Shown here: one piece after another, positions 28,605 through 59,962 of the stretch
Position numbering within the stretch: the first letter of the stretch is position 1
Layout: every line of letters begins with the position of its first letter
Position numbers and translations under genes: made by a program
NCBI RefSeq assembly: GCF_016903815.1
Contig: NZ_CP069973.1
Source: Escherichia coli
Lineage (GTDB): Bacteria; Pseudomonadota; Gammaproteobacteria; Enterobacterales; Enterobacteriaceae
Reading direction: 5' to 3' (one strand)
Length of the DNA stretch: 64,000 nt
The notes under the pieces: generated by a model
Seen by the model: the letters and a program-made list of their open reading frames with translations, nothing else
Databases searched by the model: none
What the model was told of the DNA's origin: nothing

Positions 28605-31347
<2,743 letters not shown>

Positions 31348-32823: not shown

Positions 32824-33588
32824 GGTAGTGCATCCAATTAGTAGAATATGTGTTTTTCGATAAATGCTCCGATCACTTTTTCGTGGATCTCAACTGAGCG
32901 TGAGAAGCAGATTGTTTACGAGCCAACCGCTTAATGTGGGTGCGTAGCGTCAGATTATTACGCTCAATGCGTTGGGTGAATATTTTGCCGGTCAGATGCT
33001 TATTCTTCGGCACCACCCGGCCATAGCTGTCCCAGTCATCGCTGGTGAGCATGCCGATGTTGAAGGGTGTAAGCAGTGCCAGTAGCTCCCGGCACGTTTG
33101 ATTGGTTCGGGGACCAAAAGTGTAGGCCAGTACACCGCCTGTTTTGGTGTTGTACGCGTACCAGAGCCAGTGTAGCCGGGCTTTACTGCCAACGTAGCTC
33201 CATTGCTCATCAAGCTCGCAGATAAGCGCCACATCAGCATGGGCAACAGGCGAAGAAGTTATTTGCGTTGGCGCGAGTTTTTTAAAGTCCGGATGATGGT
33301 GTTAATACCAATTTTCAGTGTCCTGGCGGTATCGCGAACCCCGGCACCATTAAAGGCCATTTCAGTGATCATCTCTTTCATACCCGGCTTACGTGCTTGA
33401 TAAGTATAAGTGAGCTGAAACACACGGTGGCAGTCACGGCAGCGAAATCTGTCACGGCCTTTAGGGTTCTGACCATGGCGGTAAACCTGAGCTGACTGAC
33501 AACGGGGACAATGAATATTAACGCTGGCCATGAGATAACCTCAAAAGCCCGTATTATACATCAGATTCAACCAATTAGAGGCATCACC
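32824..33588 (-). mobile_element. IS1-family insertion sequence, divergent isoform (InsA-like 33259-33531, InsB-like 32873-33232)
   Basis: InsA-like zinc-finger ORF and InsB-like ORF; terminal repeats GGTAGTGCATCC... and ...GGCATCACC. Confidence 0.7.
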
Positions 33589-33783
33589 CTTTCCTACATT
33601 CGTAGGACTTTGATTACATATAGCAAGGGTTAATTCTTATATACATAGAATAAATTAGGAATATAATGAATTTTATCGTGACGACCTTATTTATAATTAA
33701 TTTATATCGTCAGAGAAATTAGTGTCCACAACATGAAGCCTTACAAAGAGATTCTATGATTTAAAAAAAATAAGAGCCAGCTT

Positions 33784-35253
33784 ATGCATATCGATTCGAC
33801 TGAAAAAAATAATAAACAAAAGTTGGGCTTGCTTGCGCTAACATCCATTGTCGTGAGCTCGATGATCGGCAGCGGCGTTGACGGACTCCCCCAGAATATG
33901 GCGGAGAATTCTGCCGTGGGCCCGGTGGCGATAGCATGGATAGTCTGTGGTATCGGCATGTTTTTCATCTCCAGAACTTTTATCGTGCTGTCAAACATTA
34001 GACCTGATCTCCAGTCAGGAGTTTATATGTATGCCCGGGAAGGGTTCGGCCGATTTACGGCATTTAACGTCGCCTGGGGCTACTGGCTGATGACTATATT
34101 CAGCAACGTCGCCTTTGCCATTATGGTGATGGATACGCTGAATTATTTCTTACCAGGTGATTTCAAGGGAGGGAACAATATTCCTTCCGTTATCGGTGCC
34201 TCTTTGCTGATATGGGGATTCAACTTTTTAGTCCTCTCCGGTACCCGCATTGCCGGGTCGATTAACATCGTCGGCACGCTGGCCAAACTGATCCCGCTGG
34301 TGGCCTTTATTATTATTCTCATGCTGTTTATGAAGTACACCACGTTCGCAGATAACGTCTGGGGGCACAGCGCGAGTAAGGCCAGTCAGGACCTAGGCTC
34401 TATTTTCTCACAGGTAACTTCACCGCTTAGCGTGGCACTCTGGAGCTTCATCGGCGTTGAGGGGGCTGTCGCTCTTTCCGGTCGGGCCAAAAATAAACGC
34501 GACGTGGGTAAAGCCACATTCATTGGCTTCGTTGTATCACTGATTATCTGTCTGCTGGTCTCCATCCTGCCGTTTGGCGTGCTGACTCAACATGAGCTCA
34601 GCGCAATTCCAACCCCATCCACCGCCGGTATTCTGAAGATTGTTGTCGGTGAATGGGGGAAGATTATGATTATCTTGGGGGTGCTGATTTCGGTGCTTAC
34701 CAGCTGGCTGGCGTGGACCATCATCTGCGCCGAACTGCCTATGGTGGCCGCGCAGAACGGCACATTCCCGAAACCGTTCAGCAAAAAAAATGTGAAGGGT
34801 TCGGCCTCGGTTTCGCTTTATATAAGCAGTGCGTTTATGCAAATCGTCGTACTTCTGGTCTACTTTTCTAACGATGCCTGGCTTGCAATGCTGGCTATCT
34901 CTACCCTGACCGTTTTACCTGCGTATTTAATGACCACGGCATACCTGTTTAAACTATGTATTAGCGGCGAGTATGCCAGCTATACCACGAATCACAGCCG
35001 CAGCGCCGCGCTGGTCAGCAGTATTATCGGCTTTGTATTCTGCCTGTTTATGTTCTACGCCAGTGAAATCAAATATCTGGCGATGGTTCCGGTGCTGCTT
35101 ACGCTGGGCGTGCCCCTGTTTATCTGGGCAAGAAAAAAAGACGATCGCGCAGATAAAATATTTACGCTACGCGAACTGGCATTTTTTATTTTACTGCTGG
35201 TCCTCGACATCATTGTTTTTATTCTACTGCATTATAAAACGATACATTTTTAG
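33784..35253 (+). CDS. APC-superfamily amino acid/polyamine antiporter (CadB/PotE/AdiC-like), copy 1
   Basis: 489 aa, about 12 TM segments; N-terminal SMIGSGV-type motif. Confidence 0.8.
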   Translation: MHIDSTEKNNKQKLGLLALTSIVVSSMIGSGVDGLPQNMAENSAVGPVAIAWIVCGIGMFFISRTFIVLSNIRPDLQSGVYMYAREGFGRFTAFNVAWGYWLMTIFSNVAFAIMVMDTLNYFLPGDFKGGNNIPSVIGASLLIWGFNFLVLSGTRIAGSINIVGTLAKLIPLVAFIIILMLFMKYTTFADNVWGHSASKASQDLGSIFSQVTSPLSVALWSFIGVEGAVALSGRAKNKRDVGKATFIGFVVSLIICLLVSILPFGVLTQHELSAIPTPSTAGILKIVVGEWGKIMIILGVLISVLTSWLAWTIICAELPMVAAQNGTFPKPFSKKNVKGSASVSLYISSAFMQIVVLLVYFSNDAWLAMLAISTLTVLPAYLMTTAYLFKLCISGEYASYTTNHSRSAALVSSIIGFVFCLFMFYASEIKYLAMVPVLLTLGVPLFIWARKKDDRADKIFTLRELAFFILLLVLDIIVFILLHYKTIHF

Positions 35254-35357
35254 TCCAGATTAATTCACAGCAAGTTAAGGTGACGATAATGTCTGTTTCT
35301 TGGGCATGACATCCTCACAGTTAAATACTATCTGAACAGTAACAGTGGAGACACCTA

Positions 35358-37727
35358 ATGAAATTTAACCACAATCTTTTATTTATTTCCTCACAATATC
35401 TTGATGGCGACAACCCTTCGCAGCAGGTACTGGAAGAGCTTCAAACCGAACTCGCGGAACGCGGTTTTAAAATTCATATCACGCACCAGATCTCTGATGG
35501 ATTAAAAATCATCGAAAAAAGCCCCCAATACAGCGGGATTGGTTTTTACTGGGAGCCAGACAATCCGACCTTTGCAGAAGAGCTACAGCACTTTATCAGC
35601 ATATTCCGCAAAAGAAATGCCACGACGCCGCTGATAATTTTCTCAGAACAGAATATTACCGATCGTATCCCACTCGACGTCTTAAAAGAGGTCAGCGAAT
35701 ATGTTTATCTGTTCTCTGAATCCGCAGCCTTCACTGCCAATCGACTGTACTCCTTAGTCCACCGCTATGCGGATAAGCTTCTTCCTCCCTACTTTAAAAC
35801 CCTTAAGGACTTTACCGAGGACGGTGACTATTACTGGGACTGCCCGGGGCATATGGGGGGAATGGCCTATCTGAAACATCCTGTTGGCATTGAGTTCATT
35901 AACTTCTTTGGCGAAAACATGATGCGCGCTGATATTGGCGTGGCTACCGCGGAGATGGGGGATTATCTGATCCACGCCGGACCGCCTAAAAAATCGGAAG
36001 AAATTGCGGCCCGACTGTTTGGCTCTGATTGGACCTTCTACGGTGTTTCCGGCTCATCGGGGTCGAACCGTATTGTGGCCCAGGCTGCGGTTGGCGCAGA
36101 TGAAATTGCCATTATTGACCGAAATTGCCACAAGTCACTTAATCATGGCCTGACCTTGTCTCAGGCAAGGCCGGTTTACCTGAAACCTACCCGCAACGCG
36201 TGGGGGCTGATTGGGCCTATCCCGACCGGACGCCTGAAGAAGGCCAGTATTGATGCGCTGGTGGCAAACAGCCGACTGGCATCTGGTGCGGTCAGCCAGT
36301 CCCCGTCCTACGCCGTGGTAACCAACTGCACCTATGATGGCTTCTGTTATAACGTGAACGATGTAGTCAGACACCTGGGTGAAAGCGCACCGCGCATCCA
36401 TTTTGATGAAGCATGGTATGCCTATGCGCGTTTCCATCCGCTATACCAGAGTCGCTATGCAATGGACGCGGAGGAAACGCCAAATCGTCCAACCCTATTC
36501 GCCGTACAGTCCACCCATAAAATGCTGCCCTCACTCTCCATGGCCTCAATGATTCATGTGAAGAAAAGCGATCGCGCGCCGCTTAATTTCGATGACTTTA
36601 ACGATGCCTTTATGATGCACGGCACGACCTCACCCTACTACCCGATCATTGCATCAATTGATGTGGCAGTAAGCATGATGGAGGGTGAATCCGGTTATTC
36701 GCTTGTGCAGGAGTCAATTGAAGAAGCGATTGCCTTCCGTAAAGCCGTGGTCAGCGTCAAGCGCCAGCTCCAGGAGCAGGAAGGTGGTGACGCCTGGTTC
36801 TTCGATGTGCTTCAGCCAACCGAAGTGCAGGACAGCGATTCTGGGCAGCGATACAGTTTTGAAGAGGCACCCGTATCGCTGCTGAGCCACAGCGCCGACT
36901 GCTGGTCGCTGCGCTCCGGTGAGCGCTGGCACGGTTTTGCCGATGATGATCTGGTCGAAACCAACAGTATGCTCGATCCAGTAAAAGTGACCCTGACTTG
37001 TCCAGGGATCGGCCCGAAGGGAGAATACCAGAAAAACGGTATTCCGGGATATTTGCTGACCCGTTTTCTCGATGACCGTCGCATTGAAATTGCCCGTACT
37101 GGTGACTACACCGTGCTGATCCTGTTCTCCGTCGGCATCACCAAAGGCAAATGGGGAACTCTGATTGAAAGCCTGCTGGCCTTTAAAAAGCATTACGACA
37201 ATGACGATCTGGCCACAGATGCTATCCCGTCGCTGAAAGCGCATTCTCCACACTACGACACGCTAACCCTCAAGGAGCTATGTCAGATAATGCATGAAAA
37301 AATGGATGAGCTGGAGCTGATGTCGCATATCAACGACGCGGTAAACACCGATCCGGAACCAGTTATGACCCCGGCAGAAGCCTATCAGAAAGTCGTACGC
37401 TACAAAACCGAGCATATCCGGCTGGATGATTTTAGCGGCAGAATTGCCGCCAGCATGCTCGTCCCATATCCCCCAGGCATTCCTGTACTGATGCCGGGCG
37501 AACGGATGCCGCAAGGTAACAAGGGCATTATTGGCTATCTGCGCGCCCTGCAGGAATTCGATAAGCAATTCCCAGGTTTTGAACATGAGATCCAGGGCGT
37601 TAACGTCGATGAAGACGGGGACTTCTGGGTCAGAGCGATTGTGGAAGAAGAACGCGATGGGCAGTCGCTACCCGGCCACATAACCTTTAAACGCCAGGTC
37701 TCTGGTATTAAAAAGGGCCGCCAGTAG
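35358..37727 (+). CDS. Orn/Lys/Arg decarboxylase family protein (fold-I PLP, wing domain), substrate unknown
   Basis: 789 aa; PLP-lysine motif QSTHKMLP; N-terminal wing domain; overall similarity to AdiA/SpeF/CadA. Confidence 0.85.
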   Translation: MKFNHNLLFISSQYLDGDNPSQQVLEELQTELAERGFKIHITHQISDGLKIIEKSPQYSGIGFYWEPDNPTFAEELQHFISIFRKRNATTPLIIFSEQNITDRIPLDVLKEVSEYVYLFSESAAFTANRLYSLVHRYADKLLPPYFKTLKDFTEDGDYYWDCPGHMGGMAYLKHPVGIEFINFFGENMMRADIGVATAEMGDYLIHAGPPKKSEEIAARLFGSDWTFYGVSGSSGSNRIVAQAAVGADEIAIIDRNCHKSLNHGLTLSQARPVYLKPTRNAWGLIGPIPTGRLKKASIDALVANSRLASGAVSQSPSYAVVTNCTYDGFCYNVNDVVRHLGESAPRIHFDEAWYAYARFHPLYQSRYAMDAEETPNRPTLFAVQSTHKMLPSLSMASMIHVKKSDRAPLNFDDFNDAFMMHGTTSPYYPIIASIDVAVSMMEGESGYSLVQESIEEAIAFRKAVVSVKRQLQEQEGGDAWFFDVLQPTEVQDSDSGQRYSFEEAPVSLLSHSADCWSLRSGERWHGFADDDLVETNSMLDPVKVTLTCPGIGPKGEYQKNGIPGYLLTRFLDDRRIEIARTGDYTVLILFSVGITKGKWGTLIESLLAFKKHYDNDDLATDAIPSLKAHSPHYDTLTLKELCQIMHEKMDELELMSHINDAVNTDPEPVMTPAEAYQKVVRYKTEHIRLDDFSGRIAASMLVPYPPGIPVLMPGERMPQGNKGIIGYLRALQEFDKQFPGFEHEIQGVNVDEDGDFWVRAIVEEERDGQSLPGHITFKRQVSGIKKGRQ

Positions 37728-37801
37728 GCGGGGGAAAGAACAATACCGTCGGATCGCCTGCAATCCGACGGCAATATTATAGAATAGCTGAGGGAAACGT
37801 T

Positions 37802-39301
37802 ATGGCAGAGCAATCTTCAGATGTAAAAAATAGTGACAATAGCGCCGGAGGACATAAGCTGGGGCTTATATCCCTCATCGCTATTGTCGTTAGCTCCATG
37901 CTGGGAGGCGGCGTTTTCAGTCTGCCGCAAAACACGGCGGCCTCTTCTGCACTAGGGCCAGTAATCATTGCATGGATTATTGCCGGGATCGGTATTTATT
38001 TTATCGCAAACTCCTTTCGCGTACTATCAGATCTGCGCCCGGACCTTCAGGCTGGAGTGTATATGTATGCCCAGGAAGGTTTTGGTTCCTTTATTGGCTT
38101 TAACGTCGCCTGGGGCTACTGGCTGATGACCGCATTTGGCAACGTTGCCTTTGCGGTAATTTTAATGGATGCTTTTAATCAGTTTATGCCGGGGGTTTTT
38201 ACGGATGGTAATAATCTGAACTCCATTATCTGCGGCTCAGTGCTGATCTGGGGCTATAATTTTCTTGTTCTGTCCGGGACGAAAGTGGCCGGATTTGTTA
38301 ACACCTTGGGAACCATCGCCAAGCTCGTCCCTCTGATCCTATTCGTATTACTGCTGGGTGTGCTGATCGATTATTCGGACCTGTTTAAAAACTTTTGGGG
38401 AGAATCACCCGCGATCCTCAGTGGCAACGGAAATGACGCCGCACCAGTATCGCTGCTGTCTCAGATTCTGGCACCGATGACCGTAACGCTCTGGGCCTTT
38501 ATTGGCGTCGAGGGAGCGGTTGTTCTATCCGGACGTGCCAAAAATAAACAGGACGTAGGGAAAGCCACACTGATCGGCTTTCTGCTGGCGCTAATTATTT
38601 ATATGTTAATGTCCATTCTGCCGTTCGGTGTAATGCCTCAGGCAGAACTAGCGCAGGTCAGTAACCCCTCTACCGCAGGCGTGCTCGCCCACGTTGTCGG
38701 TCAGTGGGGCGACTGGCTGATGAGCGCGGGGCTGATTATTTCTGTTCTGGCCGGCTGGCTTGCCTGGACCATGCTATGCGCTGAAATACCGATGGTAGCA
38801 GGACAGAAAGGCGCTTTCCCGCGCGCGTTTGCCCGAACGAACAGTAAACAGGCGGCCAATGTGTCACTGTGGGTTAGTAGCTTTGTGATGCAGGCGGCCA
38901 TGTTACTTGTTTATTTTTCAAATAATGCTTGGACCACCATGTATAATATCAGTGCGCTGATGGTTGTTCCGGCCTATATTACCACCACGCTGTATCTGAC
39001 CAGTATTTGCAGAAACGGAAAATATGATCAGTATGCAAAAAAAGGCCGCAGGCTGGCTTTGTCCAGCGGTGTTTTAGGCTCGCTATTCTGTCTGTTTATT
39101 CTTTACGCCAGCCAGATTGAGTATGTTGCATTAATTCCTATCCTGTTGACCTGTGGTCTGCCGGTCTTTATCTGGTCAAGAAAAGAAAAAAATGATGGTC
39201 AGCCGATATTTACCAAAAAAGAGCTGATTTATCTGATTATGCTGTTGCTGTGCGATATTATCGTCGTTGCCCTGTTTATTGGTGGATATTTAAAGGTATA
39301 A
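37802..39301 (+). CDS. APC-superfamily amino acid/polyamine antiporter, copy 2 (paralog of 33784-35253)
   Basis: 499 aa; collinear with copy 1 (e.g. RPDLQAGVYMYAQEGFG vs RPDLQSGVYMYAREGFG). Confidence 0.8.
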   Translation: MAEQSSDVKNSDNSAGGHKLGLISLIAIVVSSMLGGGVFSLPQNTAASSALGPVIIAWIIAGIGIYFIANSFRVLSDLRPDLQAGVYMYAQEGFGSFIGFNVAWGYWLMTAFGNVAFAVILMDAFNQFMPGVFTDGNNLNSIICGSVLIWGYNFLVLSGTKVAGFVNTLGTIAKLVPLILFVLLLGVLIDYSDLFKNFWGESPAILSGNGNDAAPVSLLSQILAPMTVTLWAFIGVEGAVVLSGRAKNKQDVGKATLIGFLLALIIYMLMSILPFGVMPQAELAQVSNPSTAGVLAHVVGQWGDWLMSAGLIISVLAGWLAWTMLCAEIPMVAGQKGAFPRAFARTNSKQAANVSLWVSSFVMQAAMLLVYFSNNAWTTMYNISALMVVPAYITTTLYLTSICRNGKYDQYAKKGRRLALSSGVLGSLFCLFILYASQIEYVALIPILLTCGLPVFIWSRKEKNDGQPIFTKKELIYLIMLLLCDIIVVALFIGGYLKV

Positions 39302-39443
39302 GTCCGAGTTAAATCTTTACTGGGCTAGTAATGCCGCCTTTTAAACAAGAAGGGCGGCAATCTTACTGAAATTAGTATGCTGCAAATCGGTAATGCTGCC
39401 AACTTACTGATTTAGTGTATGATGGTGATTTTAAGGTGCTTGC

Positions 39444-39719
39444 GTGGCTTCCATTTCCATCAGATGTCCTTCCTGCTCCGCTACTGAAGGCGTGGTGCGT
39501 AACGGCAAAAGCACTGCCGGACATCAGCGCTATCTCTGCTCTCACTGCCGTAAAACATGGCAACTGCAGTTCACTTACACCGCTTCTCAACCCGGTACGC
39601 ACCAGAAAATCATTGATATGGCCATGAATGGCGTTGGATGCCGGGCAACTGCCCGCATTATGGGCGTTGGCCTCAACACGATTTTACGTCACTTAAAAAA
39701 CTCAGGCCGCAGTCGGTAA
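39444..39719 (+). CDS. insA: IS1 InsA
   Basis: [40 protein letters not shown]. Confidence 0.9.
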
Positions 39720-40141
39720 CCTCGCGCATACAGCCGGGCAGTGACGTCATCGTCTGCGCGGAAATGGGCGAACAGTGGGGCTATGTCGGGGCTAAATCGC
39801 GCCAGCGCTGGCTGTTTTACGCGTATGACAGGCTCCGGAAGACGGTTGTTGCGCACGTATTCGGTGAACGCACGATGGCGACGCTGGGGCGTCTTATGAG
39901 CCTGCTGTCACCCTTTGACGTGGTGATATGGATGACGGATGGCTGGCCGCTGTATGAATCCCGCCTGAAGGGAAAGCTGCACGTAATCAGCAAGCGATAT
40001 ACGCAGCGAATTGAGCGGCATAACCTGAATCTGAGGCAGCACCTGGCACGGCTGGGACGGAAGTCGCTGTCGTTCTCAAAATCGGTGGAGCTGCATGACA
40101 AAGTCATCGGGCATTATCTGAACATAAAACACTATCAATAA
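39638..40141 (+). CDS. insB: IS1 InsB
   Basis: 167-aa ORF identical to the InsB of copy B. Confidence 0.9.
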
Positions 40142-44659: not shown

Positions 44660-45925
44660 TCACCTTTTCAGTGGATTGTTAACTTTTGCATATTCAAACG
44701 GACTGATACACTCCTCCCTGTTTGCATCCAGAAAATCTGCCCACCATTGCAGCATAAGCCGACGTTCTTCCAGATGTTCTGCTTTATGAATATACGCGGC
44801 ACGTACTCCGTTGCGCTCCTGATGACTCATCTGACGTTCAACCGCATCTCTTGACCATAAGCCGGATTCAATCAATGCACTGCACGCCATCGCCCGGAAT
44901 CCATGGCCACAGACTTCCTTGGTTGTGTCATACCCCATCACCCTCAGGGCTTTATTTACAGTATTTTCACTGATTGGTTTACGCGGGTCATGTGCACCCG
45001 TAAATATCAGACCATTTTCACCTGCCCATGTCTGAAGTTCTGTCAGTATGGCTACAGCCTGTTTACTGAGTGGCACAAGATGTGGTGTCCGCATCTTGGA
45101 GCCCCGGTGTGAGAATTTTACGCCAGGCAGAGGTTCGCGTTCGGCTGGAATAGTCCACATGGCATTGTCAATATCAATTTCAGACCAGCGGGCATATCTG
45201 AGTTCACTGGAACGAATAAAAACCAGTAAATTCAGCATAACGGCAAGCCGGGTGACAGGCTGGCCTTTATAACCGTCAATACGCGACAGAAGTTCAGGCA
45301 GGCGTGAAAGATTCAGAGCGGGGCGATGCTGGCGTTTTACCGTGGTCAATGCACCAGCCATATCCAGAGCCGGGTTATATCTGATGATGCCAGACTGTAC
45401 GGCGTAACGCATTACAGCAGATATTCTTTGCTGCAGACGACTAGCGATTTCATAAATTTGTTTTGCTTCTGCAGCACGAACAGGGATAAGCAGGTCCGGG
45501 GTATTGAGTGTTGTGATATCCCGGTTGCCGATAAAGGGGAAAACGTGTGTCTCGAGGCTTTTGAGTACTTTATCGCTGTGTGATTGTGCCCATTGTTTAT
45601 TACTGGCATGCCAGCGTCGTGCAATATGTTCAAAAGAGAGCTGTAAATCAGGGACTACTTTTTTAACTCTTTTCTGTTCGCAAGGGTCAATCCCCTCTGA
45701 AATCAGTTTTCGGGCCTCATCCCGTTTTGTACGAGCTTCGGAGAGAGAAACTTCTGGATACACACCAAGTGCCAGAGTCTTCTCCTTACCCAGAATACGA
45801 TAACGGAGACGCCAGTAACGGGAACCATTAGGATGAACCAGCAGGAACATGCCGGCCCCGTCAGTGAGTTTATAAGCCTTGTCAGTGGGCTTTGCAGCCC
45901 GGATTTTTGCGTCAGTCAGTGCCAT
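44660..45925 (-). CDS. int: P4-type tyrosine integrase
   Basis: 421 aa; C-terminal catalytic segment HGFRAMA...RQMSHQERNGVRAAYIH; sits about 200 bp from the 3' end of tRNA-Phe. Confidence 0.9.
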   Translation of the reverse strand: MALTDAKIRAAKPTDKAYKLTDGAGMFLLVHPNGSRYWRLRYRILGKEKTLALGVYPEVSLSEARTKRDEARKLISEGIDPCEQKRVKKVVPDLQLSFEHIARRWHASNKQWAQSHSDKVLKSLETHVFPFIGNRDITTLNTPDLLIPVRAAEAKQIYEIASRLQQRISAVMRYAVQSGIIRYNPALDMAGALTTVKRQHRPALNLSRLPELLSRIDGYKGQPVTRLAVMLNLLVFIRSSELRYARWSEIDIDNAMWTIPAEREPLPGVKFSHRGSKMRTPHLVPLSKQAVAILTELQTWAGENGLIFTGAHDPRKPISENTVNKALRVMGYDTTKEVCGHGFRAMACSALIESGLWSRDAVERQMSHQERNGVRAAYIHKAEHLEERRLMLQWWADFLDANREECISPFEYAKVNNPLKR

Positions 45926-46085
45926 AGTTCAGCCTTCTGAATGCGTTAAAGAGGGTATAAATTCTGTCGAACTGGGGTATGCCCACAATTATACCCACAC
46001 AATGAGGTTGATGTGGGGGGAATCTGGTTGAGTTCGGTAGAATTGATTTGGAGGCAGGACGCTTAAATCGTGGCGTCCTGGAATG

Positions 46086-46113
46086 AAAAACGGACCTCCG
46101 TGGAGGTCCGTTG
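46086..46113 (-). terminator. Hairpin terminator downstream of pheU
   Basis: CGGACCTCC-ACG-GAGGTCCG followed by T-run on minus strand. Confidence 0.5.
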
Positions 46114-46122
46114 ATATGAATT

Positions 46123-46198
46123 TGGTGCCCGGACTCGGAATCGAACCAAGGACACGGGGATTTTCAATCCCCTGCTCTACCGACTGAGCTATCCGGGC
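46123..46198 (-). tRNA. pheU: tRNA-Phe (anticodon GAA)
   Basis: Reverse complement reads GCCCGGATAGCTCAGTCGGTAGAGCAGGGGATTGAAAATCCCC...GGGCACCA, 76 nt. Confidence 0.9.
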
Positions 46199-46304
46199 AA
46201 CGGGGCGCATTAAACCGTAATCTGCACATCTCGTCAACCTAATTTCAGTAAAAGCGATTCAACTGCTTAAGATTGCGGCAAATCGCTTCTTTTCTGTGTT
46301 TCTG

Positions 46305-46880
46305 TCAGGTCAAAGCACCACCCTGGCGGCAGCGGGCGAAGCGCAGGATATCTTCCGCCAGCCGATGTGCGGTGTCGACATCCGCCTGGCTACGATTCAC
46401 CAGCATTCGGCTTAAACAGCCTTCCAGCACCAGTTCCATCTGCTTTGCTACCATCGCCGGATCGTCAACTTCCAGTGTGGTTAACAGTTCGTGGGTGAAA
46501 TCGTAGGCCGCGCTTTTTTGCTGATCGGCCAGTTGATGAATAGGGTGGCCAGGATCGGGATAAAACGTACAGGCAGCGATAAACAGACAGCCCGGATAGC
46601 GGTTGTTTTTAACGCACTCCGATAACGCCTGATAACGTGCCAGCAACTTTTGTTCGGCGGTTTGCGTTTCGTCCAGCATCAGCTGACGACGCCAGACATC
46701 TATCTGTTGGCTAAGATAACGCAGCGCATCGTAGAGGATTGCCTCTTTGTCTGGCCAGAAGCGGCGTAGCTCGTCCAGTGGATAATCCACACGTTCAGCA
46801 ACCATCTCCAGCGTGGTGTTGGCAATCCCTTGTAATTCTAATAATTTCAGGGCTTCTCCCAGTACATCTTCACGTTGCAC
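46305..46880 (-). CDS. yjdC: TetR-family transcriptional regulator YjdC
   Basis: GTG start with GAGGA Shine-Dalgarno gives 191 aa beginning (M)[17 protein letters not shown]. Confidence 0.75.
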
Positions 46881-46916
46881 GCTATTTTCCTCCGTCTTTC
46901 CCACTGCAAGTGTCGT

Positions 46917-48614
46917 TCACGGTTGGCGATCGCGCAAATGTGCGCTGAAGGTTTCAGCATCCATAAAGCCCGTGACGCGTGCTTGTGGATGCTCCTGGCC
47001 TTGTCCGTCAAAAAAGAGAATTGTCGGTAGGCCAAGGACATTAAGATGCTTTAACAGCGCCACATCTTGTGCGTCGTTGGCAGTGACGTTGGCCTGAAGT
47101 AATACCGTGTCTGCTAACGCTTTTTGCACCTGCGGGTCGCTGAAGGTGTATTTCTCAAACTCTTTACAGGCGACGCACCAGTCGGCATAGAGATCTAACA
47201 TCACTGGTTTGCCTTTGGCTTCAACGAGCGCCTGATTTAACTCATCTACCGTTTTGATTTGTGTAAAGTTGAGATGCGTCTGAGTTTGCGCGGTATGCGT
47301 CGCACCAAATGCCCAATCCTGAAGTGGGCGCACGCTAACCAATGCCGCTGCCAGCAGGATTATTTGCACCACGCGCATCCAGCCGCGTTTGGCCTGTAGG
47401 CTGGTGATAAAGGCCCAGCCAAAGAATGCGACACCAAGCGCCGACCACAAGCGTAATCCCCATATATCACCAATCACTCGCTCCAGCAGGAAGACCGGCA
47501 GTGCGAGGATCACAAAACCAAACGCGGTTTTGACTTGTTCCATCCACGGGCCGCTTTTCGGCAGCAAGCGGTTACCAAAGACGGTAATTAGCATCAGCGG
47601 CAGGCCCATGCCCAACGCATAGAGATAAAGCGTGCCGCCCCCCAGCCACATGTTCCCGCTTTGGGCGATATACAGCAGAATCGCGCTAAGCGGTGCGGTG
47701 GTGCATGGTGAACAGATCAGTCCGGCAATCGCCCCCATAACAAACACACCGCCAGGTGAGCCGCCCTGTTGGCGATTGCTCATCAGCGTGAGACGTGTTT
47801 GCAGCGAAGAGGGGAGTTGCAGAGTAAACAAGCCAAACATTGACATCGCCAGCAAGGTAAAGACGATAGCGAGGCCAATGAGCACGTATGGGTGCTGTAG
47901 CGCCGCCTGGAACTGTAACCCTGCGGCGGCAACCACCAGACCCAGTGCCGTGTAAGTCAGCGCCATCCCCTGCACATAAATAAAGGTCAGCAACAATGCT
48001 CTGGCAGTGGAGAGCCGCTGTTTACCGCCCAGCACGATACCAGAAATCAGTGGGTACATTGGCAGCACGCATGGCGTAAAGGCGATACCAATACCGATCA
48101 ACAACGCCCAGAGCGCGGAAAAGGGCAATTGCGCGGTGGGCTGCTCTTGCTGCGGAACAGACACAGGCTGTGACGCTGCGTTGTTGGCGACCACTTCGCT
48201 TAACGGAACGGTTTTGGTTTCTGGCGGATAACAGAAACCGGCATCAGCACAGCCCTGGTAGGTGATAGTTAACGTCGCTCCCGCACTCGCCTGGTTGATG
48301 GTGACGGGAAGCGTCAGCCGATCGCGGTAAATCTCGCTTTTGCCGTAAAACTCATCTTCATGCCAGACGCCTTGCGGCAGCTGCACGTCGGCAATTTTCG
48401 CGTGTTCCGGCGTAATGCGGATCTGTTTACGGTAGAGGTAGTAACCGTCTTTGATCTGCCAGGTCAGATTCAGGTCATGTTGGTTTTGCTGAAAATCAAA
48501 AGCAAAGGCTTGATCCGCGGGGACAAATTGTGAACGTCCCGGCGCGTCGAATAATCCGGCAAAAACGGAAGTGCTGCAAAGTAGCAGGATCAGCGTAAAG
48601 ATGCGTTGAGCCAT
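46917..48614 (-). CDS. dsbD: Thiol:disulfide interchange protein DsbD
   Basis: 565 aa from [12 protein letters not shown]; CVAC thioredoxin-like motif; overlaps cutA. Confidence 0.9.
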
Positions 48615-48928
48615 GAGAGGTAATCTGTGTCTCCGTGTGTAACAGGTAAAACCAGAAGTTCCGGGGTTTGATATGGATGATGAGACTTCAGGCATTCCAG
48701 CAGTGCCTGCTGGTGAGATACGGTAGTTTTTAAAATCATCTGCACTTCGTATTCTTGCTCCAGCTTACCTTCCCAGTAATAGAGAGAGGTAGCGCCGGGG
48801 ATCAAGGTCGCGCAGGCCGCCAGTTTTTCCGCCAGCACTTTGGCGGCTAAATCCTGGGCTGTCGCTTCATCCGGTGCCGTACATAGCACCACGACAGACG
48901 CGGTATTCGAACTTTTTTCATCAAGCAT
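48590..48928 (-). CDS. cutA: Divalent-cation tolerance protein CutA
   Basis: 112 aa from [21 protein letters not shown]. Confidence 0.9.
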
Positions 48929-49042
48929 AAACACCTCGCAAGAACAGATGGAACCGCAAGAGAGAGGTCACTATACAACGGACGGGGGAAGGATGTTAGT
49001 CGGCGGGAAAGAAAGCGGGGCCTGAAGCCCCGCGATTGGTCA

Positions 49043-50344
49043 TTACAGCATGAAGCTACCCAGCACGAAGCCGAAGCAAACGGCAAGGGCAACACCCAGA
49101 GTACCCGGGATGAAGAACGGATGGTTGAAGACGAATTTACCGATACGGGTAGTACCCGTGTCATCCATCTGTACCGCAGCAACCAGCGTCGGGTAGGTTG
49201 GCAGAATGAACAGACCAGACACCGCAGCGAAAGAAGCAACAGCGGTCAGCGGAGAAACGTTCAGTGCCAGAGCCATCGGCATCAGTGCTTTTGCGGTTGC
49301 AGCCTGAGAGTACAGCAGAGCAGAAGCAAAGAAGAAGATGACGGCCAGCAGCCACGGATGACCCTGAATCACTTCACCAGCGGTATCTTTGATCCAGTCG
49401 ATGTTGTTGGAAACGAAAGTATCGCCCAGCCATGCAACACCCAGGATACAAATACAGGCGCTCATACCTGCTTTGAAGGTGCTGGAGTTGAGGATGTTGT
49501 CGGTATCGACTTTACAGATAACGGTGGTCAGAGTTGCAACGCTGAGCATGATGATCAGGATTGCGTTGGTGGTGTTCATCAGCGGTTTTTCAACCAGACC
49601 CATGCTTGGGCTGTTGATGATTGCATAGATAACAACGCCAACTACGCCCAGCAGGAACAGCCAGACGGACGTTTTTGCACCGGATTTGATTTCAATCTGC
49701 TTTTCACCGCGCAGTTCAACCAGGCCTTCTTCCAGACGCTTGCGATAAATCGGATCGTCAGAGAGTTTGGAGTTGAACAGCATAGTGACCAGGAAGGACA
49801 TCACCAGAACCGCCAGCAGGGTGGACGGGATGACCACGGAGAGCAGATGGAGGTAGCTGATGCCATGACCTTCCATTACGGAAGACATGTAAACCACTGC
49901 CGCTGAGATTGGCGATGCGGTGATCGCAATCTGCGCGGATACCACTGCAGTAGACAGCGGACGGCAAGGTTTAACGCCTTGTTCCTTCGCAACTTCAGCG
50001 ATAACTGGCAGTGTCGCCAGAGAGATGTTGCCAGTACCAGCAAAGATAGTCAGGAAATAGGTCACGATCGGTGCGAGGATCGTGATGTATTTCGGGTTAC
50101 GGCGCAGCAGCTTTTCTGTCTGATGAACCAGATAGTCCAGACCGCCAGCAACCTGCATGGCAGAAATAGCGGCGATAACCGCCATGATAATGGAAATGAC
50201 ATCGAACGGGATGTTACCGGGTTTAACGCCAATAGCGGCAAGAACCAGCACCCCCAATCCGCCTGCAAAACCAATACCTATTCCCCCCAATCTGGCGCCC
50301 AAGAAGATCGCCAGCAAAACTATGATGAGTTCTACAACTAGCAT
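49043..50344 (-). CDS. dcuA: Anaerobic C4-dicarboxylate transporter DcuA
   Basis: 433-aa membrane protein MLVVELIIVLLAIFLGARLGG. Confidence 0.9.
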   Translation of the reverse strand: MLVVELIIVLLAIFLGARLGGIGIGFAGGLGVLVLAAIGVKPGNIPFDVISIIMAVIAAISAMQVAGGLDYLVHQTEKLLRRNPKYITILAPIVTYFLTIFAGTGNISLATLPVIAEVAKEQGVKPCRPLSTAVVSAQIAITASPISAAVVYMSSVMEGHGISYLHLLSVVIPSTLLAVLVMSFLVTMLFNSKLSDDPIYRKRLEEGLVELRGEKQIEIKSGAKTSVWLFLLGVVGVVIYAIINSPSMGLVEKPLMNTTNAILIIMLSVATLTTVICKVDTDNILNSSTFKAGMSACICILGVAWLGDTFVSNNIDWIKDTAGEVIQGHPWLLAVIFFFASALLYSQAATAKALMPMALALNVSPLTAVASFAAVSGLFILPTYPTLVAAVQMDDTGTTRIGKFVFNHPFFIPGTLGVALAVCFGFVLGSFML

Positions 50345-50461
50345 ATTAGCCTTCCTTGTTTTTTAACAAGTTGATATTAGATTGTTATTTTTAAGTTACT
50401 GCTCACAAGAAAAAAGGCACGTCATCTGACGTGCCTTTTTTATTTGTACTACCCTGTACGA

Positions 50462-51898
50462 TTACTGTTCGCTTTCATCAGTATAGCGTTTTGCTTTGTA
50501 AGCCGGGTGCATCAGATTCTGTACGGAGAAAATATCGTCAAGTTCCGCTTCAGTCAACAGACCGCGTTCCAGAACGACTTCACGTACACTCTTACCGGTT
50601 TCGGCACAGATTTTACCCACGATGTCACCGTTGTGGTGACCGATGAACGGGTTCAGGTAAGTAACGATACCGATAGAGTTGTAAACGTAACCTTCGCACA
50701 CTTCTTTGTTAGCAGTGATGCCGTTAATGCATTTTTCCAGCAGGTTGTAGCAAGCGTTGGTCAGAATGTGAACGGATTCGAACATAGCCTGGCCAATGAC
50801 CGGCTCCATAACGTTCAACTGCAGCTGACCTGCTTCTGCTGCCATGGTAACAGTGGTGTCGTTACCGATGACTTTGAAGCATACCTGGTTAACCACTTCC
50901 GGAACAACCGGGTTTACTTTAGCTGGCATGATGGAAGAGCCCGCCTGCAGTTCCGGCAGGTTGATCTCGTTCAGGCCGGCACGTGGACCAGAAGAGAGCA
51001 AGCGCAGGTCGTTACAGATTTTGGACATCTTCACAGCCAGGCGTTTCAGCGCGCCGTGAACCATTACATAAGCGCCGCAGTCAGAGGTCGCTTCGATCAG
51101 GTCTTCAGCCGGTACGCATGGGAAGCCAGTGACTTCAGCCAGTTTTTTCACTGCCAGCGGAGAGTACTCTTTCGGCGTGTTCAGACCAGTACCGATTGCT
51201 GTTGCGCCAAGGTTAACTTCCAGCAGCAGTTCAGCGGTACGTTGGATATTTTTCACTTCTTCTTTCAGCAGGATGCTGAAAGCGCGGAATTCCTGACCGA
51301 GGGTCATCGGTACTGCGTCCTGCAGCTGGGTACGACCCATTTTCAGGATGTCCTGGAATTCGACAGCTTTACGTTCAAAGCCTTCACGCAGTTGGTTAAT
51401 CGCATCTACCAGCTTAATCAGGGAAGAGTAAACTGCGATACGGAAACCGGTCGGGTAGGCGTCGTTAGTGGACTGACATTTGTTAACATGGTCGTTCGGG
51501 TTCAGGTACTGATATTCACCTTTCTGGTGACCCATCAGTTCCAGACCGATATTGGCCAGCACTTCGTTGGTGTTCATGTTTACGGAAGTACCTGCGCCGC
51601 CCTGGTAGACGTCTACCGGGAACTGATCCATGCATTTTCCGTTGTTCAGGACTTCATCACATGCGGCAATGATGGCATTCGCTACACTTTTAGGAATGGT
51701 TTGCAGCTCTTTGTTTGCCATAGCTGCGGCTTTTTTAACCATTACCATACCGCGAACAAATTCAGGAATATCACTGATTTTGTTGTTGCTGATATAGAAG
51801 TTTTCAATCGCTCTCAGAGTGTGAACACCATAGTAGGCATCAGCTGGAACTTCCCTGGTACCCAACAGATCTTCTTCGATACGAATGTTGTTTGACAT
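50462..51898 (-). CDS. aspA: Aspartate ammonia-lyase
   Basis: 478 aa from [18 protein letters not shown]; fumarase/aspartase signature [10 protein letters not shown]. Confidence 0.9.
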
Positions 51899-52234
51899 GT
51901 GAACCTTCTTTTTCAAGCTGCCAATGATTTGCTTTAAACACACAGAATATATGTGGTTTCGAATGTTTTTCGACCGACGATTATCCCCTGCATCGACCGA
52001 ATACCCGAGATCATATGCTGCTTGAGGATTTCTACCGTAATCTGGATCACTTTAAGTGTCGGTTTTTACCCCTTAATTATTAATTTGTGAAATAGATCAC
52101 CGCTTTGGGATTACTACCAAAAATAGTTGCGCAAACATCTTGAAATTTTGCTAATGACCACAATATAAGCTGAACGCGATTCGCAACCCATTCAGGTAGC
52201 CGGGGTTAACCGGCTGCTATTACAGGAGAAACCT

Positions 52235-52711
52235 TTGCGCTGGTTACCTTTTATTGCCATTTTCCTTTATGTCTATATTGAGATTTCAATCTTTATTCAG
52301 GTTGCCCATGTATTGGGGGTATTGCTGACCCTCGTGCTGGTTATATTCACGTCAGTTATCGGTATGTCACTGGTACGTAACCAGGGCTTTAAGAATTTCG
52401 TGCTGATGCAGCAAAAAATGGCGGCGGGTGAAAACCCAGCGGCGGAGATGATTAAAAGTGTTTCGCTGATCATTGCCGGTTTGCTGCTTTTATTACCGGG
52501 CTTTTTCACCGACTTCCTTGGTCTTCTGCTTTTATTACCGCCGGTGCAAAAGCATCTGACAGTGAAGTTGATGCCACATTTGCGCTTTTCTCGCATGCCA
52601 GGCGGCGGTTTTAGCGCCGGGACCGGTGGCGGTAATACTTTTGATGGTGAGTACCAGCGAAAGGATGATGACCGCGACCGCCTTGATCATAAAGACGATC
52701 GCCAGGATTAA
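52235..52711 (+). CDS. fxsA: FxsA (F exclusion suppressor) inner membrane protein
   Basis: 158 aa MRWLPFIAIFLYVYIEISIF with acidic C-terminal tail. Confidence 0.9.
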   Translation: MRWLPFIAIFLYVYIEISIFIQVAHVLGVLLTLVLVIFTSVIGMSLVRNQGFKNFVLMQQKMAAGENPAAEMIKSVSLIIAGLLLLLPGFFTDFLGLLLLLPPVQKHLTVKLMPHLRFSRMPGGGFSAGTGGGNTFDGEYQRKDDDRDRLDHKDDRQD

Positions 52712-52726
52712 TGTCGAAACGCCGGA

Positions 52727-53983
52727 TTATGTGGTTATGCCATTTTCCGGCGTTTTTCGTTTTGGCAGAAACAGCCATAACCCCGCCAGCATGATCAGCG
52801 CATAGAGACTTTTCCAGCCGACCATTGCCAGTAACAGAACGCATAACAGCCCGCCAACCACCGCCAGTAGTCGATAACGTCCTTGCAATAATTTACAGCC
52901 TGCCAGCATGCATAACAGATAAATCATAATAAAGATGCCATTGGCATAGATGATAAGTGCGTCCAGATTGATCTCTAAAGCATGAATCACCAACGTGCTC
53001 ACCACGCAGCAGCCGAGCACCGCATTGAGGGCATTATTCGGGATATGACGAGAAGAGAGGCGTGCCAGGTAGTGGTCAGGATTATGTTGCGCCTGCGACC
53101 AGACCAGGCGGGCGAAGCTCTGTATATAAATGTTGAGGCTGGCAAAGCAGGCCAGATAGCCAATCACGCAGGCAATCCATAACGCTCCTACACCGAACAA
53201 CTGCACTACAATTTTTGGAAGCGATGCTGCTGCCGCCATTTGTTCACCATAGGCGTCGAAGTGTAAGACGACTACCGTACAGCCCCAGTAGACTAATCCT
53301 GCCAGCAGCAGACCAATCATCAAAGCACGAGGAAAATCACGCTCTGGATTTTTAAATTCCGAGGCAAGATGGGCAAATGCTTCCAGACCGACAAAGCACC
53401 AGAACATCACTGATAACGCAGCAAATAACCCGGTAAGTTCGATATTACCAGGTGCAGGGAAGGGGATATTCGCAGGTTTGATATCGCCCGCCCACCAGAT
53501 AGCGACAATCAGCGCGACGATAAGTCCGGCAATAACTGTTTGTAGATTAGCACTGGAACTAGCACCGCGAGTACCGATATACCACACCAGCGCCAGCGTA
53601 CCGAGTTCTGCCAACAACAGTTGCCAGCTATGCCAGCCAAACATTGCCTGGCCGAACCCGGCGGCAATTTGTAGCGCGGCAGGCAAACCCACGGGAATGA
53701 CCGATAAAAACAACCAGCCGGTGACTCGCTCAAGCCGCGAACCAAACGCCATACCGACGAAGTGCGCGACACCGCCTGCGCTGGGATAGTGGCGACCCAG
53801 AATCGCAAACACAATCGCAATCGGGAACACTAAGATAATCAAAACGGGCCACGCCCACAGGCTGTTATTGCCCGCTACCAGCGCAGCTAACGCAGGAACG
53901 GCAAACACGCCAGTGCCTAATAATGACGTCGATAGCAGGCCAATGCCCTGGGCCAGCCCCAGTTCTTGTTTGAGTCTACTCAT
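52727..53983 (-). CDS. yjeH: Amino acid exporter YjeH (APC superfamily)
   Basis: 418 aa from MSRLKQELGLAQGIGLLS. Confidence 0.85.
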   Translation of the reverse strand: MSRLKQELGLAQGIGLLSTSLLGTGVFAVPALAALVAGNNSLWAWPVLIILVFPIAIVFAILGRHYPSAGGVAHFVGMAFGSRLERVTGWLFLSVIPVGLPAALQIAAGFGQAMFGWHSWQLLLAELGTLALVWYIGTRGASSSANLQTVIAGLIVALIVAIWWAGDIKPANIPFPAPGNIELTGLFAALSVMFWCFVGLEAFAHLASEFKNPERDFPRALMIGLLLAGLVYWGCTVVVLHFDAYGEQMAAAASLPKIVVQLFGVGALWIACVIGYLACFASLNIYIQSFARLVWSQAQHNPDHYLARLSSRHIPNNALNAVLGCCVVSTLVIHALEINLDALIIYANGIFIMIYLLCMLAGCKLLQGRYRLLAVVGGLLCVLLLAMVGWKSLYALIMLAGLWLFLPKRKTPENGITT

Positions 53984-54145
53984 GGGTTGATGTCCGATTG
54001 CGCCCAAATTATGGGCAACTGCGTAGATTTTCGATGGTAGCACAATCAGATTCGCTTATGACGGTGATGAAGAAATTGCGATGAAATGTGAGGTGAATCA
54101 GGGTTTTCACCCGATTTTGTGCTGATCAGAATTTTTTTTCTTTTT

Positions 54146-54180
54146 CCCCCTTGAAGGGGCGAAGCCTCATCCCCATTTCT
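54146..54180 (+). promoter_or_regulatory. groE heat-shock (sigma-32) promoter
   Basis: CCCCCTTGAAGG (-35) and CCCCATTTC (-10) about 80 bp upstream of groS. Confidence 0.7.
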
Positions 54181-54207
54181 CTGGTCACCAGCCGGGAAAC
54201 CACGTAA

Positions 54208-54552
<345 letters not shown>

Positions 54553-54583
54553 TCCGCGCACGACACTGAACATACGAATTTAA

Positions 54584-56242
<1,659 letters not shown>

Positions 56243-56269
56243 TTGCCCTGCACCTCGCAGAAATAAACA

Positions 56270-56300
56270 AACCCCCGGGCAGAAATGTCTGGGGGTTTTT
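56270..56300 (+). terminator. groEL rho-independent terminator
   Basis: CCCCCGGGCAG...CTGGGGG hairpin followed by TTTTTCTTTT. Confidence 0.6.
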
Positions 56301-56379
56301 CTTTTGGTCATCTTTCTAGTATAAGATTCAGACACGGACGACGCGAGTGGCGTCCAGCTCATTGATTATGGGGAATAAC

Positions 56380-56733
56380 ATGCACGTAAAATACTTAGCA
56401 GGGATTGTCGGTGCCGCGCTACTGATGGCGGGTTGTAGCTCCAGCAACGAATTGAGTGCTGCCGGTCAGAGTGTACGCATTGTGGACGAGCAGCCAGGCG
56501 CAGAGTGCCAGCTGATTGGTACTGCGACAGGTAAGCAAAGCAACTGGCTTTCCGGGCAACACGGTGAAGAGGGCGGTTCTATGCGCGGCGCAGCAAACGA
56601 TCTGCGCAACCAGGCGGCTGCAATGGGCGGTAACGTGATTTATGGCATCAGCAGCCCGTCGCAGGGGATGTTGTCCAGTTTTGTCCCGACGGATAGCCAG
56701 ATTATCGGCCAGGTATATAAGTGCCCGAACTGA
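56380..56733 (+). CDS. yjeI: Lipoprotein YjeI
   Basis: 117 aa from MHVKYLAGIVGAALLMAGCSS (lipobox). Confidence 0.8.
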   Translation: MHVKYLAGIVGAALLMAGCSSSNELSAAGQSVRIVDEQPGAECQLIGTATGKQSNWLSGQHGEEGGSMRGAANDLRNQAAAMGGNVIYGISSPSQGMLSSFVPTDSQIIGQVYKCPN

Positions 56734-56782
56734 TGGGATCCAGAGGCTGGATACTTCCAGCCTCGTAGTAAAACAGATGGGA

Positions 56783-57652
56783 TTATTTCGCCTGTGGTGC
56801 AGTTTTGCTGGTGGATTGAACACGTAAGTGATGCAGCGCGCGTAAGCATTGATCCTGGGTTAGCGGTTGGGCGTTATTTGCCGCTACGGTGCGAACATAG
56901 ACCTGACATGGTACACCCGCGAGTTTTTTCAGTCGTGGGCTGAAATCAAGCATTCGGCGAGTGATCGCCTCCACTTCTTTACCCGGCGTTGCTTCACGCG
57001 TTTTCACCACTGCGCCGCTAAATTGTTCTTTGCCACTTTCATCTTTAAAGCGGTAAAGCACCGCCAGATAATGGTTGAACAAGTTATGTTTCCATTCCGG
57101 TTGGGAATAGGTGTCATATTCCAGATTGCCATTGTCCTGGCAGTCAACGTCGTATAACGGCAGGAAATCTAACAGTGAAGTAATACGTAATGCCAGTTCA
57201 CGCATTTCCGCATTATTAATTGCATGAATGATTGCTCGCGCCAGCATTTCAATCTGCAATTCATTGATGACTAACTCACATTTGCTACTGTCATGTAGCG
57301 TTAATACGAAGGTAAGATTTTCACCCTGATTATCGGTAAGTTCCAGCGTGTTAACCCGACGATTAATATCGGCATTTTTAAGCTCATCAACCAGAATTTC
57401 TGGTATATTTTCTGCCATTTTCTTAATGACTTTATCGCGAGCTTGCTCATACTGAAGGCGTGCAGCAGCATCCAGTTTATGCTTTTGATGCAGACGGCTT
57501 TCCAGCGCAATCAGAAGGTCGCGCAGTTCCATGACAGACAGAAAGAACAACGATTCTTTATTGCGAGGCTCTTTAATTTTCAGCGCCAGTGCAATGAAAT
57601 TATTACTCTTGCGAATAACACCGGTATTAACACCCTTGATGCTTATGGCCAT
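56783..57652 (-). CDS. yjeJ: Uncharacterised protein YjeJ
   Basis: 289-aa ORF in conserved position between yjeI and epmB. Confidence 0.75.
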   Translation of the reverse strand: MAISIKGVNTGVIRKSNNFIALALKIKEPRNKESLFFLSVMELRDLLIALESRLHQKHKLDAAARLQYEQARDKVIKKMAENIPEILVDELKNADINRRVNTLELTDNQGENLTFVLTLHDSSKCELVINELQIEMLARAIIHAINNAEMRELALRITSLLDFLPLYDVDCQDNGNLEYDTYSQPEWKHNLFNHYLAVLYRFKDESGKEQFSGAVVKTREATPGKEVEAITRRMLDFSPRLKKLAGVPCQVYVRTVAANNAQPLTQDQCLRALHHLRVQSTSKTAPQAK

Positions 57653-57886
57653 GTAGGTTCTCCCTAACCATTTCTCAATTCAATAATTAATTTTAATTTA
57701 TAAGCCAGATAAATGGGCTTGGTAGTAATAGTTGTTAAAATAACATAAATAGCCGTGCTCACTCTATATAAACAGAAAAGAAAGGTTAATTATTGGTGTT
57801 GGTTATATAAAAAGTAATAACAGCAATGTATATGAATAATTAAAGGTTATGCAACGTGCAAAGATTAAACTTCCCTGTTTAATCAG

Positions 57887-58915: not shown

Positions 58916-58956
58916 TTTGTGGCTTAGCTACCAATTAACAAATTTCAGAGGGCCTT

Positions 58957-59523: not shown

Positions 59524-59574
59524 TGCGGTTGTGGTGCGGCCTGCAGGCTGCACCATCACTTATTCAGGTCAGAG

Positions 59575-59700
59575 ATGATGAAACGCCTTATCGTTCTTGT
59601 TTTGCTTGCCAGTGCGCTGCTCACGGGCTGTAACACCGCTCGCGGTTTTGGTGAAGACATTAAACATCTCGGTAATTCCATCTCCCGCGCTGCCAGCTAA
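59575..59700 (+). CDS. ecnA: Entericidin A lipoprotein
   Basis: 41 aa MMKRLIVLVLLASALLTGCNTARGFGEDIKHLGNSISRAAS. Confidence 0.8.
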   Translation: MMKRLIVLVLLASALLTGCNTARGFGEDIKHLGNSISRAAS

Positions 59701-59957: not shown

Positions 59958-59962
59958 GCAAT

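Follow-up and report, generated by a model that had tools for sequence, protein, structure and literature searches.

How does an integrase gene come to lie directly downstream of an intact tRNA-Phe gene in this Escherichia coli chromosome, does their junction mark the edge of an integrated island and, if so, where is the other edge? We addressed these questions in a window of 64,000 nucleotides (the whole stretch of contig NZ_CP069973.1 that was analysed), in which both genes lie within positions 44660-46198. Altogether, the evidence makes it very likely that this interval is the attL junction of a 74.9-kb island of the PAI-pheU/GI-pheV family. The features of the window are as follows.

1 to 44659, no strand assigned: cargo in the window (RefSeq annotation of a near-identical genome; segment distribution; GC).
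44660 to 45925, minus strand: gene for a P4-type tyrosine integrase (intP4), 421 aa, apparently intact (Pfam; P4 Int alignment; PHROG_1 integrase).
45926 to 46122, minus strand: integrase-proximal att arm (P arm), 197 bp, ~90% identical to the yjdQ relic arm downstream of K-12 pheU.
45977 to 46000, minus strand: tandem arm-type repeats GTGTGGGTATAA TTGTGGGCATAC, like the P4 attP repeats TTGGGGGCATAA TTGGGGGCATCT in sequence and position.
46084 to 46111, minus strand: GC-rich hairpin GGACCTCCACGGAGGTCC and then a T-run, right after the CCA end of pheU (read from the sequence; conserved in alignments).
46123 to 46145, minus strand: attL core, the last 23 nt of pheU, TTCGATTCCGAGTCCGGGCACCA, with one exact match in the window.
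46123 to 46198, minus strand: pheU, tRNA-Phe(GAA) gene, the integration target, intact (ARAGORN; Rfam; identical to K-12 pheU in alignment).
46199 to 64000, no strand assigned: conserved chromosomal flank in K-12 order, dicD/yjdC, dsbD, cutA, dcuA onwards (annotation; K-12 alignment).

A sequence-only reading of this DNA had described the integrase beside pheU as P4-type, and the protein bears this out. The Pfam matches (Arm-DNA-bind_3 at residues 3-86, 1.9e-29; Phage_int_M at 98-192, 2.4e-27; Phage_integrase at 211-383) supply N-terminal arm-binding (Arm-DNA-bind_3/DUF4102) and SAM-like domains together with the catalytic domain. Similarity to P4 Int is full-length (55% identity over 97% of the query length, E = 3e-152, tblastn against phage genomes), and in a pairwise alignment the catalytic residues R238, H341-x-x-R344 and H368 and the nucleophile Y378 are identical to those of P4 Int. 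The open reading frame contains no frameshift and no truncation, and its product matches the PAI-pheU integrase of strain CFT073 at 410 of 420 residues (98%). A full-length match to the NCBIfam model PRK09692 scores 252 bits against a cut-off of 434; this model is narrow and derives from a different integrase subgroup, and we treat the sub-threshold score as uninformative. Of 5,426 complete E. coli genomes, at least 3,183 have an integrase gene 90-97% identical in nucleotide sequence next to tRNA-Phe, where a match that includes dicD denotes the pheU copy and a match without dicD its identical paralogue pheV.

The tRNA-Phe(GAA) gene, placed by ARAGORN at 46123-46198 on the minus strand and by the Rfam tRNA model at 46126-46198 on the same strand (68 bits), is the sole tRNA gene in the window. 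The integrase gene (44660-45925) lies directly downstream of it in the same orientation, and the measured gap of 197 bp between the integrase open reading frame and the tRNA 3′ end agrees with the distance of about 200 bp first estimated. On the other side of pheU, the genes at higher coordinates (dicD, also called yjdC, followed by dsbD, cutA and dcuA) are core genes in the order found in K-12. The hairpin and T-run that follow pheU lie on the integrase-side arm of the island and are present too in the K-12 relic and at attR; they resemble a terminator and may function as one. Searches of the window found no second copy of the 23-nt pheU 3′ end, either with up to three mismatches or with up to four edits including indels.

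The far edge was found in a closely related chromosome. The window differs from that of strain 7/2 (NZ_CP023820.1) at 2 of 50,000 positions and, over stretches of 22-24 kb, is 100% identical to several E. coli chromosomes from human clinical isolates; the far-edge and attR coordinates given here are those of NZ_CP023820.1, a near-identical complete genome, and not of the genome from which the window derives. There the island ends 28.8 kb beyond the window start, beside cadC, which itself lies ~29 kb beyond the start. At this distal boundary stands a direct repeat of the tRNA 3′ end: 22 of the 23 nucleotides, with one G deleted (TTCGATTCCGAGTCCGG-CACCA, L002:21195-21216), so that the cadC-side interval reads TGGTG-CCGGACTCGGAATCGAA, the last 23 nt of pheU minus one G/C pair. 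An indel-tolerant search of 114 kb turned up no copy of the pheU 3′ end besides this one and pheU itself. The sequence-only reading had correctly placed the other edge and its repeat outside the window, and had proposed an upstream search for a direct repeat of the pheU end. The repeat does exist in the near-identical genome, but it is imperfect (22/23 nt), and an exact or ungapped search misses it because of the one-base deletion: an ungapped search with up to three mismatches through 50 kb upstream in that genome found no copy of the pheU end, a false negative. With both edges in hand, the island measures 74,906 bp, and the window contains its pheU-proximal 46,122 bp.

The locus thus carries the signature of site-specific integration, with an integrase gene beside the tRNA gene on the same strand, a direct repeat, P4-like arm repeats at each end and a site that stands empty in most genomes. 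Very probably, the P4-type integrase recombined the attP core of an element in circular form with the 23 terminal nucleotides of pheU. A replacement 3′ end came with the island, the tRNA gene staying intact beside int, and the displaced tRNA end is now the far-edge marker beside cadC. What the sequence displays of recombination between attP and the tRNA 3′ end is the signature of a past event.

The DNA between these two edges is a patchwork. The cargo in the window comprises grpA-grpO of a glycyl-radical propanediol microcompartment operon (grpA-grpS, which crosses the window start) and a decarboxylase with two antiporters; it also includes fragments of type VI secretion and two-partner-secretion genes, interrupted by IS2, as well as ibrA/ibrB/PerC, a MarR regulator, a TPR-like open reading frame, an IS3-family element that harbours a group II intron, and three IS1 copies. 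Further out, beyond the window, the island holds pseudouridine and nucleoside genes and a yee-type module of GTPase, DUF932, antirestriction protein, RadC/JAB, YeeU/CbtA and DUF4942. Its mobile parts include three copies of IS1, two group II introns, and IS2, IS3 and IS30 fragments. Of the 51 coding sequences annotated in the window part, 13 are pseudogenes (RefSeq annotation, near-identical genome), and transposase and intron reverse-transcriptase coding sequences occupy ~8.2 kb (18%). The region had been taken for a decayed mosaic with a heavy IS load, a description that fits the cargo but not the integration module, which looks intact. GC content varies in blocks between 42 and 55%, and mobility genes are accompanied by a distinct base composition, although the overall shift is modest (48.2% in the island against 50.4% in the core flank). 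Two segments of the window also differ in distribution: at a presence threshold of at least 80% coverage, positions 1-24000 are found in 333 of the 5,426 genomes and positions 26000-48000 in 54 (1-6%). Annotation and comparison with CFT073 indicate that IS elements, group II introns and deletions, along with one or more inversions, remodelled the cargo after integration.

Such a patchwork raises the question of whether the region is composite, the product of successive events in which the pheU-side integrase belongs to the newest or proximal module while the far repeat and the yee/DUF4942 genes are older. Two inovirus-Gp2/YfjJ-like genes duplicated in the backbone, an AlpA-like gene in mid-island, module distributions as far apart as 333 and 54 of 5,426 genomes, an ibrAB/PerC block that is inverted relative to CFT073 and the presence at pheU of yjdQ, left behind by a related element that came before, would all be in keeping with this history. 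However, neither the 74.9-kb island nor the K-12 relic contains an internal copy of the pheU 3′ end at up to four edits, and the island therefore has no tandem att scar of the kind that would point to serial insertion. CFT073 PAI-pheU and other pheU islands are, moreover, framed by the same int, yee end and attR, and a fixed frame whose cargo is swapped by IS-mediated and homologous recombination fits better than serial site-specific integrations. We therefore regard a composite origin as improbable for the island as a whole. It is nonetheless largely compatible with the reading of the junction as the attL of a single framed island, and for the cargo, module exchange is likely to be true.

A different question is whether the accessory DNA came to this site at all. 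In K-12 the distance from cadC to pheU is 616 bp, and the interval holds only the pseudogene yjdQ. In a three-way alignment, the far junction follows K-12 sequence through the repeat and island sequence thereafter, and at the near junction island sequence gives way, at the repeat, to that of K-12 (pheU, dicD). The claim that 46123 is an island edge is upheld by this comparison: K-12 joins cadC-yjdQ to pheU, and window positions 1-46122 all lie inside the island. As a probe for occupancy we used the 1,101-bp K-12 segment that spans cadC-yjdQ-pheU-dicD. An uninterrupted K-12-type site is present in 3,693 of the 5,426 complete E. coli genomes (~68%), and in two sampled occupied genomes the match to the probe ends at position 825, nucleotide 23 from the pheU 3′ end. 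The island is accordingly found in some strains and an intact empty site in others.

The sequence-only reading had pointed to the cadC-pheU-yjdC interval of K-12 as the place to compare. The interval does indicate insertion at the pheU 3′ end, but it is not virgin, since it holds the yjdQ relic. Similarity between the 197-bp spacer and the K-12 sequence downstream of pheU extends into the first codons of int and yjdQ. The K-12 relic belongs to the same integrase and arm family and differs in being a remnant of ~600 bp from which most of int is gone and one arm repeat has been removed by a 12-bp gap. Occupied genomes have it too, to the cadC side of attR; its presence in occupied and empty genomes alike indicates that it predates the present island. 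On these alignments, yjdQ is what is left of an earlier related integrase together with its arm. K-12 pheV diverges into unrelated sequence straight after CCA, and the relic arm is thus a feature specific to pheU.

The comparison with K-12 favours insertion here over the view that the accessory genes are ancestral, that K-12-like genomes lost them and that 46123 corresponds to a deletion scar elsewhere. Precise excision by the integrase would restore a K-12-type site, and presence or absence alone gives no direction to the change; an integrase relic stands at pheU even in "empty" genomes. But most genomes (3,693 of 5,426) have an uninterrupted site, the pheU-proximal content occurs in 54 genomes only, and other occupied genomes carry different cargo in the same frame. 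The junction furthermore has all the hallmarks of site-specific insertion (int, core repeat, arm sites), and the relic, which occupied genomes also carry, between attR and cadC, is older than the island. Ancestral accessory genes are in our view highly improbable.

Insertion of the island by its own integrase finds further backing in the att arms, which resemble those of phage P4. The arm pattern at 45980-45996, 127 nt from the core, has one match in the window against 0.01 expected by chance. At the far end, the arm repeats CTGCGGGTATAA TTGAGGGTACAT carry the pattern 55 nt inside attR, and the joint pattern matches once per junction, against 0.01-0.02 expected by chance. The annotated attP of P4 has tandem 12-nt repeats (TTGGGGGCATAA-like) at distances from the core of 113 nt (int side) and 54 nt (opposite side), and the arm repeats of the island align with them. 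The island and P4 thus share tandem 12-nt arm repeats on both sides of the core at near-equal distances, a core that lies at the very 3′ terminus of a tRNA gene and ends in GGCACCA, and an integrase with the same architecture and catalytic residues at 55% identity. P4 itself integrates at leuX, not at a tRNA-Phe gene. A counterpart of the P4 Vis protein is present as well: outside the window and ~54 kb from int, the island encodes a Phage_AlpA-family protein of 77 aa (Pfam 2.5e-10) that is 36% identical to P4 ORF88/Vis.

With a P4-like integrase, a P4-like att architecture and a Vis/ORF88 homologue, the element might be thought a P4-like satellite prophage or an ICE instead of a non-self-mobile island; this is the least probable of the alternatives. 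The satellite form is excluded, since only Int and ORF88/Vis, of 14 P4 proteins searched by tblastn against the 74.9-kb island, have matches there (alpha primase, sid, delta, psu, epsilon, cI, gop and beta have none). Among the genes that RefSeq annotates across the island there is no capsid gene and, which makes an ICE very improbable, no relaxase or type IV secretion/mating-pair gene. The P4 functions of replication, immunity and helper exploitation are likewise absent from the island, which at 75 kb is about six times larger than the 11.6-kb P4 genome.

The recombination module, made up of int, arm sites at both ends and the Vis/AlpA homologue, is structurally complete and may be active. 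Excision may still be possible, int, the arm sites and the Vis/AlpA-like gene all being apparently intact, but attR is one base short of attL. The same one-base-deleted attR occurs in two other, divergent pheU islands (junctions 89-93% identical), and the commonest attR listed for GI-pheV is also TTCGATTCCGAGTCCGG-CACCA (PMC11537424, PLoS Genet 2024). Its recurrence in divergent pheU islands and in GI-pheV marks the deletion as a trait of the family and not as decay specific to this strain. One mismatch in the repeats can cut the frequency of island deletion by orders of magnitude (PMC11537424). It is conceivable, though doubtful, that the island is active and mobilisable between the identical pheU and pheV, with the deleted attR corresponding to the attP of the family and strand exchange taking place at the very end of the tRNA, within CACCA or beyond it. 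With a crossover 5′ of the deletion, on the other hand, the tRNA-Phe gene that remained after excision would be defective, a built-in brake on loss of the island. For those who look for such elements there is a lesson of method: with a one-base-deleted repeat that is typical of the family, exact or ungapped searches for the tRNA end would wrongly imply that there is no attR.

Some caution in this reading is called for by the imperfect repeat, the modest GC shift and the distance of ~54 kb between the AlpA-like gene and int.

The closest known relative is PAI-pheU of CFT073 (PAI II CFT073). It occupies the same site, with pheU between cadC-yjdQ and dicD, and shares the near-identical integrase noted above, the same 197-bp spacer and arm repeats and the yjdQ relic. 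Its far end likewise carries DUF4942, DUF957, CbtA/YeeU, RadC/JAB, antirestriction protein, DUF932 and GTPase genes, and both islands encode an identical AlpA-like protein (WP_000958492.1) and a PerC/IbrB/IbrA block, which is in the opposite orientation in CFT073. The loads are different. The CFT073 island has pap (papG-II), ireA and pgt in 52 kb, whereas the 74.9 kb of the present one hold the grp operon, which is absent from CFT073 PAI-pheU, together with two group II introns, type VI secretion remnants, a decarboxylase/antiporter module and genes for pseudouridine and nucleosides.

A second relative is GI-pheV, in which intP4 is the sole conserved gene, IS elements border a modular cargo, the att repeats measure 23 bp or 19 bp and the attL core is the 23-bp tRNA-Phe 3′ end (PMC11537424). 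GI-pheV and the present island have in common a P4-type int, the 23-bp attL core and the deleted attR. Unlike GI-pheV, the island described here sits at the paralogous gene pheU, downstream of which lies the relic arm, and the homology between attL and attR runs ~190 bp past the core. pheU has been described as an integration hotspot, with PAI-pheU catalogued in CFT073, CE10, S88 and ED1a and with LEE and SHI-3 variants also at this gene (PMC7545054).

The junction is therefore a correctly identified example of an element of a kind already known, which is annotated in dozens of RefSeq genomes. It marks the boundary between core and island in a human clinical E. coli lineage and has little import beyond annotation. 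What sets this island apart is a PAI-pheU frame with a different load, consisting of a vitamin-B12-independent propanediol microcompartment, a decarboxylase/antiporter module and candidate defence genes. No paper came up in a literature search that combined pheU with microcompartment. Classical adhesin, toxin or siderophore genes do not figure in the RefSeq annotation of the island, and the element is better called a metabolic or fitness island than a pathogenicity island. The island does carry grpP/grpQ, a two-component system that is reported, in the title of PMC11724981, to promote CFT073 pathogenicity. Among ten hypothetical proteins screened with PADLOC, the one strong defence candidate is a NERD+UvrD protein (C3a187).

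The 'empty' pheU site of E. coli K-12, in which yjdQ lies between cadC and pheU, is the remnant of an earlier related island. When this cadC-pheU interval (L003:2436-3051, in the K-12 region) is compared with window 45700-46122, yjdQ aligns with the start of the present island's integrase gene, and a 12-bp gap in the relic arm corresponds to the loss of one of two arm-type repeats. Owing to this relic, attL and attR of the present island share ~190 bp of additional homology beyond the 23-nt core.

Positions 1-50000 of the window differ from E. coli strain 7/2 (NZ_CP023820.1) only at 12869 and 49199, which places the window in a very close relative, though not necessarily in strain 7/2 itself. 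The far repeat, attR, located in a region of strain 7/2 beside cadC (L002), carries a one-base deletion (GG-CACCA) that is identical in three divergent pheU islands:

L002:21195-21216 (NZ_CP023820.1 4715812-4715833), attR of the present island in strain 7/2
L005:3296-3317, attR of a second pheU island
L006:3296-3317, attR of a third pheU island

The commonest attR of GI-pheV, the sister island family at the paralogous pheV, likewise has this deletion (PMC11537424). attR is rebuilt at each integration, yet the indel is common to these islands, which leaves one of two explanations: either attP itself carries the deletion and crossover occurs 3' of it, or the island ends have spread via homologous recombination.

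Two group II introns lie within the island:

246-1660, minus strand, degenerate group II intron between grpP and grpO of the glycyl-radical propanediol microcompartment operon
28214-31347, plus strand, second group II intron, apparently intact, inside an IS3-family transposase gene

The reverse transcriptase/maturase of the degenerate intron is broken into two open reading frames, with 246-773 matching the C-terminal half of TIGR04416 and 795-1334 the N-terminal half, and group-II D1-D4 RNA domains are found by Rfam at 1372-1660. In the second intron, ltrA occupies 29276-30784 and the Intron_gpII model of Rfam matches at 30788-30874, with fragments of the transposase gene on either side (28214-28603 and 30868-31347).

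Further accessory cargo includes a candidate defence gene, secretion remnants and a decarboxylase/antiporter module:

18358-20145, plus strand, 595-aa protein with NERD and UvrD-like helicase domains, matched by PADLOC
20539-23084, a two-partner-secretion gene with a POTRA domain, together with type VI secretion gene fragments (ImpA N-terminal and VasL domains)
32838-40141, Orn/Lys/Arg-family decarboxylase and two antiporters, with inverted IS1 copies on both sides

The PADLOC match is full length, to the candidate defence family C3a187 (4.2e-140); RefSeq names this protein a 3'-5' exonuclease. The secretion fragments are split by a complete IS2 at ~21024-22354. The ibrA (PAPS reductase-like)/ibrB/PerC block at 24124-26327 has a counterpart in the CFT073 PAI-pheU (L008:46855-49065); the two are in opposite orientations relative to pheU, and ibrB, intact here, is frameshifted in CFT073. 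The 789-aa decarboxylase, flanked by two paralogous basic amino acid/polyamine antiporters, misses all NCBIfam equivalog cut-offs, scoring 740 bits against the 1167 required for the AdiA-type model and lower still for LdcC, CadA and SpeF. The native cadCBA acid-resistance locus directly adjoins the island that carries this module.

Two RNA elements in the core flank, without relation to the island, were identified with Rfam:

60005-60128, plus strand, Hfq-binding sRNA STnc490 (146 bits)
60779-60825, plus strand, guanidine-II (mini-ykkC) riboswitch (50 bits)
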